DNA of 64,000 nucleotides, from positions 1 through 64,000 of the IMG/VR virus record IMGVR_UViG_3300028591_000083. The stretch is one strand, 5' to 3'. Source of the DNA: a virus (Duplodnaviria; Caudoviricetes). The notes beneath the pieces were generated by a model that worked only from the letters and a program-made list of their open reading frames with translations, made no database searches and had not been told where the DNA came from. Made by a program: the position numbers and the translations under genes. Below, piece after piece: positions 5,603-18,098 of this stretch (positions within the stretch are counted from its first letter, which is position 1; each line of letters opens with the position of its first letter).

Positions 5603-8119
5603 TTAGTCTTCTGGGAATAGTGCTCCGGCTTCTGTGATGATGAAGTCAATATCAAAGAACTCTGCGGTACGTGTAGGAGCAATCCATACCTTACCGGGAC
5701 ATCTGAGATGATTGATATCATCAGTAGTTACCGTAGATTCATCCATCTTGATCTTGTAATCATACACACCTTCGTTGCGCTTCATATAACGTAAGAATTC
5801 ATCCATCTGAGCGTAGAACTTCAACCACAGCGTAGAAGTATTCGGCTCAAACGCCATGTTCAAGCAAGTGTCAAAAATCTTTTTCTTAACAACATTTGCA
5901 ATCAGTCTTACATTAAGGCTTTCGAGTGCAGAATGTGTATAAAGATCAATAGCTTGAAGTGTAGTGTACTGACCGTAGATAACATATCCATACTGCTTTA
6001 GCTTCATAATTGGATTTACTCTGGAAGTGTTATCATTCTGCCAATCATTAAGAATAACAGAACCGATCTCATAATCAGGTCTTACAACTACTCTTGCAGT
6101 AGCTCTCTTAACACCGGCAGGTGGGAACCATTTCTGAGATTCTACGTTATCAATTAGATTTGAAAGGAAAGTATACAGGAAGATGTAAGAAGGAGCCATG
6201 AGAATATTCTTTCCTGCAATCGTTGGACTCTGTACCCAACACCACGGATGATGAATAGTACCATAAGAGGTATTAAGAATTCTTGAATACTCAACGATTA
6301 GCTTCTTATCATAATCATGTGGTACATCAAACAATGCAACACAATCCTGTCTTGTGTTTACAAGTTCTCTCATTGCATTATGAATTGGAGTTACCTTTGT
6401 GTAGTAAGCAGAATCAGAGTTGTATGCTCCGGATGTGGTAGGAACAGTAACATTGACAGTTTTTGGAGATGCAAAATACTTATAACCAACAGTTGCGGTT
6501 CTTGCACTCTCAGAAGCAGTGATACCAGTAACTTCACCTGTTGCATAATTAACAGTTCCGAACACAGTCTCTCCATTCTTTAGTTTTCCGCCGTCTTTTG
6601 CTGCATCCCCATATACAGTACCACCAACAGTAACAGATACAGTACCTTCACTTAGATTCTTATTTGGAATAGTAAATGTAACTGCATTTGCGGCGATTTC
6701 ATCACTCTCACCAGTAACCTTTGTTGCTGTATCAATGAGTTCTGCTTCTGTATAAACAAAACCACCAGATGTGATAAAGTCAAAGTCATAAATGTATGGA
6801 TCAGTGAAGTTCTGATATACATTTGCAATAGACTGATAGATGTTAGCAACGATTGCTGTATCTCCGTCATAAAGCTCTGACAAATACTGGTTTACATCAA
6901 GGATTGTCCAAGTGGAAGTTCCTTCATAGTAACCTTTGAATCCTGCTTGTAGTTTTGCAAGTGTCTGAGCACTATACGGGAAATCATAACCACCAGTAAG
7001 TCTTGCATCTGTATTAAATACAGAAGTTCCATTCTTGATATACTTTACAGGAATTGTTGGGAAACCAGAATATACTACAACGCCAGATTGTGCAGCAGCA
7101 TTGATATTGCTCCAAACAAGCTGTAGAGTCGTTCTAGCATCTGGTGCAGCAATGATTCTAATAAAATCAAAGTTTACATCCTCAAAGTAGTAAGGATCAT
7201 CAGGATTAGTAGAAACGCGCTTCGTTTCAAGAGTCGTTACATTGGTAACAACAGATTTATCTACTGTTTCGCCGGAAACAGGATCATAGTCATAAATCTT
7301 CTTAATATCTGCCTTGTAAACAGAAATATTTGCATACTGATAAGACTGAGATACATTTGCAGTATTGATCTGAGAAATACCAATAAGAAGATTATTACCA
7401 AAAGAACCCTTGTACTTTGCTGTAATACCGGCAATCTGAGGACAGAATGTATATCTTACAATATCATCATCTGTGAAATAATTATAAGAAACAGTATATT
7501 CATCAAATGAATCAAGACTTGCAGTAACAGTTACAACACCGGTTTTATATGCAATCGTTCCTAGTGTTTCTGTAGTGCTTGGATTCTGTGGATCTGTATA
7601 AATAAGATTTCCTGTATCCGCAGTAGAAGCAGTATCAACATATTCTTTACCGGCAATAGTAATACTAACAGTACCCTGAACAACATTCTTATTTAGGTTC
7701 TGAACAGTGCTTCCTGCTTCTGTAATTGTTTCATTCACAGGAGTTGCAAGCATCAAAGATGCAGGACAAACAGTATTTACAGATGGAGTATTTCTGTCAT
7801 CATTTGTACGTGCAAGTGTGAAACCTGCTTCATTACCATTGTTATTAACTCTAACAACAGATACAGCAGAACCCTTCTGAATTAACTGTGCTGCATAGGT
7901 TCTTGAATAATCATTCTCGATTGGATTAAACTCTGCTTCGGTATAACCGAACATTCTGTTGAAATCAGTAATGTCAGTGAAAGTACCTACAGAAGTGTCT
8001 TCGCCGTCAAAGCTAGGACCGAAAGATGCAATGATAGGAACAAGGATTTTTACCTTATCATCAGATACAACTCGTGTCACTACACTTTGATCAATTTCAT
8101 TTACTTGAATCTGAGGCAT
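5603..8119 (-). CDS. tail sheath protein (gp18-like) with two inserted beta-rich modules
   Basis: N-terminal MPQIQVNEIDQS; C-terminal WFPPAGVKRA, LNVRL, FEPN, IAPTRTAEFFDIDF sheath motifs. Confidence 0.92.
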   Translation of the reverse strand: MPQIQVNEIDQSVVTRVVSDDKVKILVPIIASFGPSFDGEDTSVGTFTDITDFNRMFGYTEAEFNPIENDYSRTYAAQLIQKGSAVSVVRVNNNGNEAGFTLARTNDDRNTPSVNTVCPASLMLATPVNETITEAGSTVQNLNKNVVQGTVSITIAGKEYVDTASTADTGNLIYTDPQNPSTTETLGTIAYKTGVVTVTASLDSFDEYTVSYNYFTDDDIVRYTFCPQIAGITAKYKGSFGNNLLIGISQINTANVSQSYQYANISVYKADIKKIYDYDPVSGETVDKSVVTNVTTLETKRVSTNPDDPYYFEDVNFDFIRIIAAPDARTTLQLVWSNINAAAQSGVVVYSGFPTIPVKYIKNGTSVFNTDARLTGGYDFPYSAQTLAKLQAGFKGYYEGTSTWTILDVNQYLSELYDGDTAIVANIYQSIANVYQNFTDPYIYDFDFITSGGFVYTEAELIDTATKVTGESDEIAANAVTFTIPNKNLSEGTVSVTVGGTVYGDAAKDGGKLKNGETVFGTVNYATGEVTGITASESARTATVGYKYFASPKTVNVTVPTTSGAYNSDSAYYTKVTPIHNAMRELVNTRQDCVALFDVPHDYDKKLIVEYSRILNTSYGTIHHPWCWVQSPTIAGKNILMAPSYIFLYTFLSNLIDNVESQKWFPPAGVKRATARVVVRPDYEIGSVILNDWQNDNTSRVNPIMKLKQYGYVIYGQYTTLQAIDLYTHSALESLNVRLIANVVKKKIFDTCLNMAFEPNTSTLWLKFYAQMDEFLRYMKRNEGVYDYKIKMDESTVTTDDINHLRCPGKVWIAPTRTAEFFDIDFIITEAGALFPED

Positions 8120-13879: not shown

Positions 13880-14005
13880 TTAGTCAGTGATTCTACCACG
13901 GATATACATCTTACCATTGAGCATCTTCATGCCGTAAGATGTTGCGTAACCCTGCTGACCACGGAAGTCTGCTGGCATGAGTAGATCTGTGGACATGATA
14001 GGCAT
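13880..14005 (-). CDS. major capsid protein, terminal exon (copy B, downstream of intron 3)
   Basis: Encodes MPIMSTDLLMPADFRGQQGYATSYGMKMLNGKMYIRGRITD*, continuing the YAPY motif of gp23-type MCPs; missing from the ORF track. Confidence 0.85.
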   Translation of the reverse strand: MPIMSTDLLMPADFRGQQGYATSYGMKMLNGKMYIRGRITD

Positions 14006-15445
14006 TGCTTTATTACGCTTAAAAACATCCTTTGAGGTTTATGTTGTAAGGATTGTCAAGTTCAAGTTCGGTTATATATCTAAAATCATATCCCTGCTCT
14101 ATGCTATATCTTTGTTTTATCTGATTCCTGATATCTTGTATTCTGAAATATGGTTTCACTTCAAACACAATATTTGTATTTGGTATTACAAAATCAGGAT
14201 AATAAACATGAAATTTTCCTTTGTAAAAGTATTGTATCTCTAAGGATTCATATTCAAATTCAAGTCCAAACTCATTAAGTATTTTGGCAAATATTAATTC
14301 CAACGATGATCTAAAACGATATTCTTTTCCGTTTATCGTTTCTACTTTCACATGGTTTCTATTATACGATTTTTTCATAACGATCTCAGTCAGTCCATTT
14401 TCATGTTGTTTTTTACATTTATCTGACTGCATTTTTCTATAATCATCGTCTTGCCACTTTTTCTTAGTTGTTTCTGACAATCTATCGTACACGCCAGTTT
14501 CCCTTAACTTATCAGATACCCGCTTTCCGATATCTGGATATCGTTCTTTTCGTGTACGTGCTGCCCTCATACGACTTTCTTTGTACTTTTCAGGATTTTC
14601 TTTCATGTTCTGTGCAAGATGTTCATTACTTATTGTAACTGCACGTTTACATCTCTCACTAATCTCAGGAATAAATAATTGTTGATATGGATATAATTTT
14701 TCAAATTCTGATCTTGACATATGATGTTTCCATGTTAGGTGTTGTGTTAATTGTTTCATATTTGATTTTCCACATATAGGACAAGTAAGAAGTTCGTTAT
14801 CTGTTGGAAGTATTAATTCTTTTTCTTCCGGAAACATATTGAAATAATCATCAACTGATCCTATATTGTGCTTCTTCAAATGAAATGCCAAACCACGTTT
14901 AGATGTAACTGTTTGATTGCAAATAACACATTGTATCATATAAACCTCTCAGTCATTTTTAAGATGCTTACCCTTTCAGGAACATACATAAAGTATGTTG
15001 TTGAATTTCGTATCAACTAAGGCTAGACTATATCATAAACTTCAATAATAAATTAATGAAGCCCAAAGGAACTTCGGAATCATTTGATTCCTACTCCGAG
15101 CCACCGGATAGTCGTTGCACCTTCATCCTACATAATTAGGACGCTTGGCTCAGTGGTTATCCAATCTTAAACCTTGTTACCATACATGAGTAATTACTTC
15201 ATCCGCAAAAACATTACTGTATTTGTTTGGTAGTTTAAGCTCTAAGGATGTTCCCTGAATTCCCCTTTGTAACTACAATCATATATCACTATATGAAGGT
15301 ACATACCTATTGTTTGTTTTTAGTCTGTGATTCTGCCTCTAATATACATTTTTCCGTTAAGCATCTTAGTACCATAGCTGGTAGCGTAACCTTGCTGACC
15401 ACGGAAATCTGCTGGCACAAGTAGATCTGTTGAACAAACAGGAAT
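14006..15445 (-). ncRNA. group I intron 3 of MCP gene, with duplicated exon in P1 loop and endonuclease ORF near 3' end
   Basis: Core on minus strand: GAAUUCAGGGAA (P4), CUGAGCCAAG, AAGGUGCAACGACUAUC and GAUAUAGUCU (P7); IGS at 15299-15318 pairs with both exons. Alternative boundaries 14003-15442. Confidence 0.8.
14019..14939 (-). CDS. intron-encoded putative homing endonuclease: two C2H2-like zinc fingers plus PD-(D/E)xK (TnsA-N-like) nuclease
   Basis: CVIC...HLKKH, CPICG...HLTWKH, FRSSLE...YYPDF...FEVKP. Confidence 0.75.
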   Translation of the reverse strand: MIQCVICNQTVTSKRGLAFHLKKHNIGSVDDYFNMFPEEKELILPTDNELLTCPICGKSNMKQLTQHLTWKHHMSRSEFEKLYPYQQLFIPEISERCKRAVTISNEHLAQNMKENPEKYKESRMRAARTRKERYPDIGKRVSDKLRETGVYDRLSETTKKKWQDDDYRKMQSDKCKKQHENGLTEIVMKKSYNRNHVKVETINGKEYRFRSSLELIFAKILNEFGLEFEYESLEIQYFYKGKFHVYYPDFVIPNTNIVFEVKPYFRIQDIRNQIKQRYSIEQGYDFRYITELELDNPYNINLKGCF

Positions 15446-15462
15446 ATACGGCGCGTAAACAA
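15320..15462 (-). CDS. MCP exon 3 (micro-exon 15446-15462) read through into intron-borne duplicate terminal exon (copy A)
   Basis: (F)VYAPYIPVCSTDLLVPADFRGQQGYATSYGTKMLNGKMYIRGRITD*; exons of 840+376+143 nt give an in-frame 452-aa MCP. Confidence 0.85.
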
Positions 15463-15866
15463 CATTTGTGTTTATACATACTGTATTGTATGTATATTTC
15501 CCATATCACTATGGGGATCAGACTATATCATGAATTTAATAACTCTGTTACCAAGTTATTAAAAACCCTCGCACTTCCATTTAATAGACTTACATAAGAC
15601 TAATATCATCTTATTGCTAACCTATACAGGCTGTACTCTACTTGCTTCGTGTTGTTAAACAACCTTATTTTCAAACCACCTGATAAAAATCATTTATGCA
15701 TTTCTGCAAATGTGGTTGTCTAGCTTTCGATAGTCGTTGAACCTTTCTTAAAATTAAGTTTTCTTATTTTTAAGACTTGGCTGCTGATTGACTCACTTAT
15801 GAGCTTTCCAGCAGTTCACGAGGTTTAGGCTGGACTTGTATTACGCAGCAACGGCATAATCCGTTA
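15463..15866 (-). ncRNA. group I intron 2 of MCP gene (404 nt, no ORF)
   Basis: P1 GCUGGAU/GUCCAGC with U.G at the 5' splice site; GUGAACUGCUGGAAA, AAUCAGCAGCCAAG, AAGGUUCAACGACUAUC, GAUAUAGUCU; ends in G; splicing restores EAGFVYAPY. Confidence 0.9.
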
Positions 15867-16242
15867 ATCCAGCTTCAAGGAAACTCGTACCCTTGTAACC
15901 CATAACAAAAGTATCCTCTGCCATGGAAGGAGCAACGTAAACCTTGTAACGACCACCGAGTGTACCAATGAAGTGAGGACCAACAGCATCGGAAGAACCA
16001 GTAGCGTCAAAGTTTCTCATACACTCAATAACTGCGGAAACATTAGTACCACAAACAATGAAGTTTGGCTGTACTCTCTGAGTTGCCTGCTGAACAATCT
16101 TAGCACCAGCAGTAAGGCGAATCCAGAAGGAATCATAGTGATCCATTGCATTTACGCCGTGTGGTGCGGTTCTGCTCCATGTAATCTCAGGACCTGCTGC
16201 TGCACCTTGATAGAGCTTGCTAATAACTTCCTGATCAATCTC
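15867..16242 (-). CDS. major capsid protein exon 2
   Basis: EIDQEVISKL...NFIVCG...IGTLGGRYKVYV...MGYKGTSFLEAG gp23-type motifs. Confidence 0.9.
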
Positions 16243-17258
16243 CATTATGTTACGAATTATCCGTATCCGATAATTCTCTATACATTATGTATTTTGTATA
16301 GTTCGGACTATATCACATTCTCAATTACTCTATTACCAAATATTTGAGAACCCATGCACTTCGGATTTACTAAATCCTACTCTACTTGCTTCGTGCTTTT
16401 CAGCCTTATTTTCAAATCGCCTACATCTTATTATGTATTTATGTATTTCTACAAATGCGATTTTCTAGCTTTCGATAGTCTCTGAACCTTATAATTATAA
16501 GTTGTAGTTATTTATTTTTTGAACAAATGCCTCTGTGAAATCCAATAGACTCATAGTACTCAAGTTCTGCCTGTGAAATTGTTTTATTTATCTCACCATT
16601 TGTAACTCTTATGTGTCCTTTATTTCTGCCTTTGTTCTTTTCACTTATTTTTCTAAGTGTTTCTTCTGTATGTTGTTTTCCATACATAGGATTATTTTCA
16701 CCAGATGAAAGTTCGCTTCTTCTTTTTAACTGTGCTTCATTCATTTTCCAATGATTTCCATAATTTGAGTTTTTATTACCAGATCTATTTTTGCTCATTT
16801 GTTTCTTTGTTTTATCTGAGTGTTTGTGTCCTTTGAATAACGGTCCGCCAGCTCCGGCTTCGCCGCCTTTACAAATATTATAGAAATCAGGATCATTTTG
16901 AGCATTATAGTAAGCGATATATTTTATTTCCATCTCGTTTAATTCTTCTTTTGATTCACATTCACATAACATAATTACTGAGAAATTTTCTTTTCCATAG
17001 AGTTCAATAGCCTGTTTAAGAATTTTACCAGAACCTAAATACTTCTCATGAAGAAATACGTTTGATTTCTTCTGTCCGATATATCTTTTTCCATTCTCAT
17101 TATTTATAGTCATGTAAATATAACCATACATTTAATAACTACCTCTTTATAATTATCTTGGCTTCTGATTGGCATATAAGCGATCAGAACTCATATGCTT
17201 TTCCAGAAATTCACATGGTTTTTCATAATCTGTCACCAGATTAAGCCACAAGTTGTTT
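16243..17258 (-). ncRNA. group I intron 1 of MCP gene (1016 nt) with GIY-YIG ORF in P6
   Basis: P1 CCAU/GUGG with U.G; GUGAAUUUCUGGAAA, AAUCAGAAGCCAAG, AAGGUUCAGAGACUAUC, GAUAUAGUCC; terminal G; splicing restores GEIAH-EIDQEV. Confidence 0.9.
16508..17131 (-). CDS. GIY-YIG homing endonuclease with NUMOD3-type repeats
   Basis: YGYIYMTIN...KRYIGQ...YLGSG; KHSDKTKKQMS and GENNPMYGKQHTEETLRKIS repeats. Confidence 0.9.
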   Translation of the reverse strand: MYGYIYMTINNENGKRYIGQKKSNVFLHEKYLGSGKILKQAIELYGKENFSVIMLCECESKEELNEMEIKYIAYYNAQNDPDFYNICKGGEAGAGGPLFKGHKHSDKTKKQMSKNRSGNKNSNYGNHWKMNEAQLKRRSELSSGENNPMYGKQHTEETLRKISEKNKGRNKGHIRVTNGEINKTISQAELEYYESIGFHRGICSKNK

Positions 17259-18098
17259 ATGGGCAATTTCGCCAGCAGCCTGAGTCTTCATAACATCAAG
17301 AATCTCAGTACCATACTGCTGCTTAAGGTCATATGCTGCATCAAAGCCCCAGTAAGCTGCTAGCTTTCTGGACTTAGCAAAAATACCAACCTGACCGAGA
17401 GACATATTCATCTCTGGAACCTGAAGATCCGGAACCTGCTCATTGTTGTACTCATATGTAGCAGTTGTACCGTCAGTAGCGGTTGCACAAGCAAATGCAC
17501 CACTTGCATAATTAATAGTACCAACAGTAGTACCGGTAGCAGGATTTACAAGATTACCAGTACCGTCATCAACATAACGAGTACCGTCTGCAAGAACAAC
17601 AGCAACGGTCTTAGGAAGAATTGGAACAAACTCAAAGTTTACACCGTCAGTAACAGGCTCATCATCAACAATACGAGAAGTGTAGTAAGTATCAGACTGA
17701 CCAGTGTAAAGGGAGTTGTTAAACATCTGACCAGCAGTAACCTTACCCTTATTAGTACCATAAGTAAATCTGAGGAAGGAAATCATACCAGCCTTGGAAT
17801 CTAGTGGCTGAGTAGAAACAATATCAGGAGTGATAATGTTTGGAACAACAGCAGTAAGTAGATCCATAAAATAGGTCTTGGAAGGAATGTTAGAGGAGTT
17901 AGTTGCCTCATTAAGCATTCTTGCTTCGGTGTTTGCAAGAGTCTGTGCAAGTGTAATCTTCTTTTCAAGAGTTAGTGGGGACTTGCCAGCTTTCTTCTGA
18001 ACACTCTCTGCGATACGGATGTTTCTGCTATACTTCTTAAGGTTAGCATCAGCTTTTAGCTTGCTCTCCATTAGAGCTTCGTTAATTGTAGTTGCCAT
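17259..18098 (-). CDS. major capsid protein exon 1 (T4 gp23-like)
   Basis: DIVSTQPLDSKAGMISFL, AKSRKLAAYW...AYDLKQQYG motifs; highly expressed codon bias. Confidence 0.92.

Follow-up and report, generated by a model that had tools for sequence, protein, structure and literature searches.

A group I intron in a rumen phage capsid gene carries a reworded copy of its downstream exon in the P1 loop, a likely translational fail-safe

The usual view is that an essential gene can bear a group I intron only if the intron splices efficiently, and we know of no phage group I intron that carries a copy of its downstream exon, the products of reading through such introns being truncated. Some open reading frames (ORFs) of mitochondrial group I introns continue the frame of the preceding exon, so that translation runs on into the intron, the product there being an endonuclease or maturase precursor and not a stand-in for the end of the host protein. 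Here we describe an intron in a stretch of 64,000 nt (hereafter the window; positions 1 to 64,000 of the IMG/VR record IMGVR_UViG_3300028591_000083, a 207-kb virus record), in which the third intron of the major capsid protein gene (MCP), intron 3, holds a second version (copy A) of the last 41 codons and stop codon of the gene, while the true last exon (copy B) follows the intron. Intron 3 is likely to be a working mobile group I intron with an enlarged P1 loop, in which the reworded downstream exon acts as a translational fail-safe, and a full-length capsid protein can probably be made from spliced and unspliced RNA alike.

Among described systems, those nearest to intron 3 are found in fungal mitochondria. 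In atp6 of Allomyces macrogynus and in atp6, atp9, cox2 and nad3 of Glomus, mobile endonuclease ORFs insert together with a foreign C-terminus (PMC3630166). These cassettes resemble intron 3 in that an endonuclease element lies near the 3' end of an essential gene with an in-frame, nucleotide-divergent but protein-similar C-terminus plus stop, and in that the native C-terminus is found ~1 kb downstream (PMC3630166). They differ in having no ribozyme, and their native end is displaced, unexpressed for atp6 and cox2, and free to decay (PMC3630166), whereas the ribozyme of intron 3 removes the inserted copy and restores the native end in RNA, and both copies are conserved. Phage mobile group I introns used for comparison (T4 td, nrdB and nrdD, Twort orf142, SPO1-type introns and the capsid introns of Cluster J mycobacteriophages, PMC3706429) share with intron 3 an IA-type core (RF00028), a U.G pair at the 5' splice site and an intron-encoded homing endonuclease (a putative one in intron 3), as well as the presence of several introns per structural gene and an in-frame stop soon past the 5' splice site. 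The hexacoral intron ND5-717 likewise ends in A and bears a large coding cargo in a peripheral loop of its ribozyme, but this cargo consists of unrelated whole genes in P8, the host is an organelle gene and inheritance is strictly vertical (PMC6545197). Full-text literature searches, with subscription journals largely outside their scope, found no group I intron with a copy of its own downstream exon and no description of such an architecture in a phage capsid gene, in line with the initial annotation, made from the DNA letters alone. What appears to be new is the group I intron with a downstream-exon copy in P1; mobile group I introns and fungal C-terminus cassettes are already known.

MCP is encoded on the minus strand and is a member of the T4 Gp23 family (Pfam PF07068). 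An intron-less homologue matches solved T4 gp23 structures with an E value of ~1e-20 in an alignment that extends into the duplicated tail, and the 41 duplicated residues align with a conserved part of T4 gp23. Three group I introns were found in the gene with Rfam, and their removal was followed in a sheep-rumen metatranscriptome (runs X2 and X19, which represent one sample) in the form of assembled contigs, not reads. All three introns are removed in RNA contigs. One contig species reaches 15866, continues with 16 letters of a micro-exon and proceeds at 14005, the A of the copy B AUG (X2, depth 5.3, no mismatches; X19, depth 3.4), and a second joins 17259 to 16242, demonstrating removal of intron 1. 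At intron 3 the ligation is exactly UAU to AUG, and the spliced contig matches the window over 306 + 125 nt plus 1.5 kb more with zero mismatches. The mature mRNA reads ...GFVYAPY-MPIM... and encodes 452 residues. None of the RNA splice joints was seen in DNA run X1 (~14x depth), which tiles the region with mismatch-free contigs and is probably the source of the assembly; the RNA library also holds intron-containing pieces. These contigs show that copy A is spliced out in RNA and that the native exon B is joined in vivo, precisely at the splice sites (15446 to 14005) predicted beforehand and with copy A lying within the intron. The features of the gene, in the order of transcription, are as follows.

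17259..18098, minus strand: MCP exon 1, 280 codons, Gp23 family (Pfam PF07068; 3' end set by the RNA contig joint of 17259 with 16242).
16243..17258, minus strand: intron 1, group I, with a GIY-YIG/NUMOD3 homing endonuclease gene at 16508-17131; its last base (16243) is G (partial Rfam match, Pfam, and an RNA contig skipping 1016 nt).
15867..16242, minus strand: MCP exon 2 (Pfam PF07068; RNA joints at both ends).
15463..15866, minus strand: intron 2, group I, without an ORF; its last base (15463) is G (Rfam RF00028, 69.9 bits; removed in RNA contigs of X2, X19 and X20).
15446..15462, minus strand: 17-nt micro-exon UUGUUUACGCGCCGUAU (letters present at the 15866/14005 joint of the RNA contigs; one U could belong to either exon 2 or the micro-exon).
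14006..15445, minus strand: intron 3, 1440 nt, comprising copy A, guide, ribozyme core and endonuclease gene (RNA joint placing UAU next to AUG; Rfam core; homologues in 10 other loci).
15320..15445, minus strand: copy A, which continues the frame of the micro-exon for 41 codons plus TAA, inside the P1 loop (sequence; intact in 12/12 sequenced copies).
15433..15442, minus strand: 5' strand of the P1 extension, CCU + GUUUGUU, in copy A codons 2-5 (pairs with 15306-15308 and 15312-15318; covariation and predicted minimum-free-energy (MFE) fold).
15299..15318, minus strand: internal guide region, with AACAAAC (closing stem), AGG, UAU and GUAC (read from the sequence).
15005..15312, minus strand: group I catalytic core, P2-P9 (Rfam RF00028, 51.7 bits, E 3.9e-11).
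14019..14939, minus strand: intron 3 endonuclease gene, 306 aa (Pfam; PHROG 22215/15427).
14006, minus strand: last base of intron 3, A in place of the usual G (sequence and RNA junction).
13880..14005, minus strand: copy B, true last exon with 41 codons and TAA (ligated to the micro-exon in RNA contigs; clusters with intron-less alleles).

Copies A and B lie 1440 nt apart and differ at 29 of 126 nt in 22 codons, 17 of them synonymous and 5 non-synonymous, without any indel or internal stop, a recount that reproduced the figures of the initial annotation exactly. The amino-acid differences are concentrated in codons 1-4, and the stop codon of copy A is directly followed by the guide sequence. 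An assembly chimera was considered as the source of the duplication and rejected; mismatch-free overlapping DNA contigs tile the region in run X1, and the same architecture occurs in 10 other independent assemblies. For annotation, this layout means that gene callers will stop MCP at copy A, missing intron 3 and the true last exon.

Relatives of the window locus (W) were collected by scans of IMG/VR and of metagenome contigs, and are ~200-kb uncultured phages from sheep and cattle rumen. The search that had been proposed among related phage capsid genes yielded all three kinds of allele, namely intron-less alleles, introns with the exon copy and a homologous intron that lacks it. Ten further independent loci have the same layout as W (L001, L002, L009, L013, L015, L057, L058, L060, L070 and L082), with L071 as an additional partial copy. 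Both copies are intact, with all 41 codons and the stop, in 11/11 loci at 50-77% capsid identity, so the decay of copy B in homologues that had been considered as a sign of simple gene-end replacement was not found. Many relatives have no intron at the intron 3 site, and every one of these intron-less alleles reads YAPY-MP(I/V)... across it. Copy B always starts MPI and groups with the intron-less alleles in the tree; copy A never starts with Met, its first residue being I, Q or F. A search of cultured-phage DNA (50,697 phage records) gave short intron or endonuclease matches only and no close relative.

The homologue without the exon copy is found in a more distant capsid gene at the same YxPY-MPI site (L016:2957-4408). 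It shares with intron 3 the insertion site, the guide motif GGCAUGUAC, a P2 with a GUGA loop and an endonuclease of the same family, but its P1 loop is 18 nt long and holds no copy A, so that read-through adds eight unrelated codons and then a stop; the base that precedes its 3' splice site is G. The endonuclease ORF of this homologue is broken into two frames and appears to be decaying.

The initial annotation had deduced protein-level selection from the comparison of A with B within the one genome. That comparison alone is insufficient, because the divergence could predate the duplication; the claim stands for both copies when they are compared across genomes. The median ratio of non-synonymous to synonymous substitution rates (dN/dS) was 0.14 for A-A pairs and 0.12 for B-B pairs at a dS of ~1, and the variable sites at codon positions 1/2/3 number 16/10/34 in A and 13/10/31 in B. 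Between W and L001, the two loci whose introns have a terminal A, copy B is under strong purifying selection. Over codons 5-41, copy A differs from the B of its own genome at 0-4 residues (mean 2.5; none in L009) and from the B copies of other genomes at a mean of 7.1 (0/50000 permutations). Its codons show no such closeness, as 49% of the codons for shared residues differ between A and its own B, a value similar to that against any other B, compared with 37% among B copies; unbroken identity between A and its own B extends over at most 8-23 nt. The clearest case of host tracking is L015, in which both copies end in the unusual ...IAGEIL, written in different codons. In the clade of W, L001, L002, L058 and L060, the A copies share derived codons, with dN/dS of 0.06-0.20 at dS of 0.4-0.9.

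The group I fold proposed for intron 3 was recovered by a covariance model, in which a full-length core of Rfam RF00028 spans 15312-15005 with 51.7 bits (gathering score 50; E 3.9e-11). This core includes the P7 strands GACUA/UAGUC, and 67 of the 96 predicted core pairs have changes on both sides (alignment A3, 12 homologues). In P1, the last four bases of the micro-exon, GUAU, form the exon side and pair with GUAC of the guide, G15302 standing opposite U15446 as the U.G pair, and the RNA junction falls precisely after U15446. This pairing and the two others described at the outset, CCU/AGG and GUUUGUU/AACAAAC, are present and constitute the closing helix of the MFE fold of 15296-15462, leaving copy A as an insert of ~105 nt in the P1 loop. 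In addition, AUAGGUAU in the guide region is complementary to the first bases of copy B, with which it could form P10. The xUAU/GUAx pairing at the 5' splice site, U.G included, is kept in 11/11 loci, with a compensatory CUAU/GUAG in L009. A closing stem is formed in every locus with sequences that vary on both sides, among them GUUUGUU/AACAAAC, GUUUGC/GCAAAC, CUGUAUUAA/UUAGUACAG, CUAUAUUA/UAAUAUAG, GAUUGC/GCAAUC and CCUAUAUUA/UAAUAUAGG, and the energy of the duplex between the 5' and 3' parts averages -15.2 kcal/mol for partners from the same genome vs -10.5 for partners from different genomes, with 0/20000 permutations as good. This covariation of the closing helix between genomes bears out the claim that copy A is looped out of P1. 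The fold of micro-exon, copy A and guide as a whole is not unusually stable (z -0.88), and only the closing helix is informative. In all loci, 0-20 nt separate the copy A stop from the guide sequence. As a side observation, the 17-nt micro-exon serves two ribozymes, its first bases P10 of intron 2 and its last four P1 of intron 3.

The last nucleotide of a group I intron is usually G. Intron 3 ends in GCA before the AUG of copy B in the window and in L001, and in G before AUG in the other nine relatives. Three cut registers fit the RNA product, giving a terminal A, A or U and never G. Two registers that would provide a G were considered and rejected, as a junction of AUU with CCU (the G of AUG as last base) and the use of G at 14008 would each yield a product that differs from the RNA. 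The guanosine-binding pair in P7 shows no compensating change in the two terminal-A introns and is the same as in the relatives that end in G. An accurately spliced natural group I intron with a terminal A is rare, and the sole precedent that we found is hexacoral ND5-717 (PMC6545197).

The 306-aa ORF of intron 3 encodes two C2H2-type zinc fingers and a PD-(D/E)XK domain (Phage_endo_I / T7 endonuclease I / TnsA-N-like; Pfam) and occurs as one copy in the 207-kb genome. Its best PHROG family (22215/15427) has no assigned function, and searches of Pfam and PHROG matched it to no characterised homing-endonuclease family; a scan of IMG/VR with the single sequence also gave no matches, and an alignment-based scan was needed. 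Conserved orthologues occupy the same position in L001, L002, L009, L013, L070 and L082, which together with the window makes seven loci. The gene is absent in L015, L057 and L058 and decayed to fragments in L060 (L060:2514-2704), and the introns without an intact endonuclease gene are 521-751 nt long with copy A intact. Since copy A persists where the endonuclease gene does not, the copy belongs with the ribozyme and not with the endonuclease; from these sequences, the pattern looks like a homing-endonuclease cycle of gain and loss atop a stable unit of ribozyme plus copy. Recent gain or loss of the whole element follows from two pairs of loci that differ in its presence, as the 3' exon of L002, which has it, is 100% identical to that of L003, which has not, and the copy B of L009 is 99% identical to the corresponding exon of intron-less L010. 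The intron-less site reads ...CCGTAT followed directly by ATGCCTAT..., and the junction of micro-exon and copy A reads ...CCGTAT followed by ATTCCTGT...; the loss of the first Met codon in copy A probably destroys the predicted endonuclease target and fits the pairing in P1.

In bacteria, translation closely follows transcription. A ribosome that crosses the 5' splice site before splicing would read copy A, stop there and release a complete capsid protein. While inside copy A it would hold the closing stem open, and at the copy A stop it would cover the guide 0-20 nt away. After it leaves, the start of copy A could pair with the bases past its stop, P1 would form and the intron would splice, and later ribosomes would read copy B. 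Without copy A, read-through would give a capsid protein that lacks the conserved 41-residue Gp23 segment and ends in a few junk codons, as with the eight of the L016 homologue, and for a lattice-forming protein such truncated subunits are plausibly harmful and could disturb capsid assembly. Copy A would thus cancel the cost of slow or incomplete splicing, and with that cost removed a selfish intron and its endonuclease could persist in an essential and very highly expressed gene. The synonymous rewording would remove long identical repeats, recombination between which would delete the intron, and the differences in codons 1-4 would fit two constraints, namely the pairing in P1 and the need not to recreate the intron-less junction that is presumably cut by the endonuclease.

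Several points weigh against this reading of copy A. The translation of copy A and the entry of its product into capsids are steps that we infer. Introns 1 and 2 have no comparable insurance, which limits the gain to intron 3; a short copy can insure only the 3'-proximal intron, which would explain why none is found in the other two. Copy A tracks its host strongly when clades are compared, but weakly within the closest clade. A single clade of A copies was rejected (approximately unbiased test, p 0.008), L013_A grouping with the intron-less L014, although the tree of A origins is built from 111 nt with saturated synonymous sites and does not separate repeated origin from gene conversion or convergent host tracking. 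Part of the signal of purifying selection could thus be mimicked by repeated re-copying or by gene conversion, with functional capsid genes as the source. Codon adaptation is higher in B than in A in 8/11 loci, a weak hint of unequal use that was not used as evidence. The contig-level RNA data give neither a ratio of unspliced to spliced transcripts nor an mRNA that has lost intron 2 while keeping intron 3; where the X20 contig passes over intron 2, it ends two bases into an AU that is ambiguous between A and B. Finally, the spliced RNA contig could in principle stem from an intron-less strain with identical exons.

One alternative is that copy A is a scar of arrival, brought in with the endonuclease or left by aberrant break repair, that it has no role and that one of the two copies is heading for decay. 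Cassettes of an endonuclease with a foreign C-terminus are known from the mitochondria of Allomyces and Glomus (PMC3630166), the element has been gained or lost between near-identical phages (L002/L003 and L009/L010), and in clade 1 A and B have discordant histories, as would fit a copy A that travels on a mobile element. Such a scar is nevertheless unlikely, given that both copies are intact in 11/11 loci at 50-77% capsid identity with dN/dS of 0.14 and 0.12 at dS ~1, that A carries host-clade-specific residues in different codons, that copy B is used in spliced RNA and that copy A outlasts the loss of the endonuclease gene. The initial annotation had left open whether the arrangement is a fail-safe or a source of two protein isoforms, and of these the fail-safe fits better. 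In a regulated switch, the competition of ribosomes with P1 folding would set the ratio of two functionally different capsid proteins with A and B ends. Both products are predicted, a ribosome terminating at the A stop would cover the guide 0-20 nt away in all loci, and A begins with I, Q or F and never with Met, as against MPI in every B; on the other hand, beyond codon 4 the two ends differ at only 0-4 residues, and at none in L009, codons 1-4 are tied up in P1 pairing and the likely endonuclease target, so that their divergence is explained without any protein-level role, and many close relatives build capsids without the intron and with a single C-terminus. We consider a switch of this kind quite improbable. 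A bolder version, in which the race between ribosome and P1 folding sets a fixed ratio of A- and B-ending capsid variants that the phage uses and in which the design arose repeatedly (with a second site in L016 and L129, see below), is a speculation that we hold to be unlikely; if true, this two-output device would achieve by splicing what frameshifting does for the capsid variants of other phages.

Copy A might also be kept for a reason at the level of RNA or DNA, either as an ORF that leads ribosomes to a well-placed stop and so aids folding, or as a homology arm for recombination. In phage T4, splicing of the td intron in vivo reportedly benefits from translation up to an in-frame stop close to the intron's 5' end, and the copy A stop lies at a conserved short distance from the guide. 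Such roles need no more than an open frame or nucleotide similarity, whereas in copy A the amino acids are kept and the third positions are free (16/10/34), the nucleotide divergence of A from B is maximal, and L016 manages with an eight-codon read-through, all of which makes this explanation very unlikely in our judgement. Finally, intron 3 may not splice at all, in which case the seemingly spliced contigs would derive, through DNA carry-over or transcription, from an intron-less strain that co-occurs with this phage, and the protein would always end in A. Metatranscriptome contigs are the only RNA data and such libraries can contain DNA, and the last intron base is A rather than G. Yet the joined contig is free of mismatches over 306 + 125 nt plus 1.5 kb, a closeness that no sampled intron-less relative reaches; the three introns are removed at canonical positions with joints that are absent from the DNA run; strong purifying selection acts on copy B in the comparison of W with L001; and the ribozyme core covaries. 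A non-splicing intron is hence hardly credible.

With copy A taken as a fail-safe, intron 3 appears to carry insurance against its own splicing failure, and it links self-splicing introns with the endonuclease cassettes that replace gene ends, two kinds of element that have hitherto been treated apart. It also offers a natural example of a very large P1-loop insert, one predicted to be translated, and a system for studying the competition of translation with ribozyme folding on a single RNA. As a model for RNA engineering, it points to a way of keeping a gene functional both spliced and unspliced.

A second, candidate instance of the arrangement was observed ~20 codons before the capsid stop in L016 (L016:4409-5661) and L129 (L129:2214-3486). 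Here the order is a full C-terminus with stop, an ORF for an endonuclease of the same family, a group I core (Rfam, 52.6 bits in L016 and 53.4 in L129) and the recoded last 21 codons, and the start of the upstream copy has 15-17 bp of complementarity with the region just before the core. Judged from these sequences, it appears to be the spare-exon device of intron 3 at another site, here with the endonuclease gene in the long loop as well; no U was found at the expected 5' junction in either locus.

In DNA run X1, a second contig covers 15330-15416 with 8 differences and then joins 15204, skipping or replacing 125 nt that comprise the end of copy A, the guide and P2 (window 15204-15416), which points to a variant of the element co-occurring in the same rumen sample. 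Elsewhere in the gene, the 3' halves of introns 1 and 2 (15560-15700 vs 16300-16460) share long near-identical stretches, such as ...GAAAATAAGG...ACGAAGCAAGTAGAGTA..., and the two introns are therefore paralogues. This paralogy probably explains an odd RNA-contig joint (15622/16435) and an inverted piece (16395/15717), either as assembly cross-overs or as a variant strain. In L007 (6178-6669), and also in L080 and L083, the C-terminal match starts only at ...TDIL, and in L007 a group I intron lies just upstream of this match (6245-6566; Rfam, 53.3 bits), which suggests a further insertion site, ~five codons downstream of that of intron 3 and with no exon copy.

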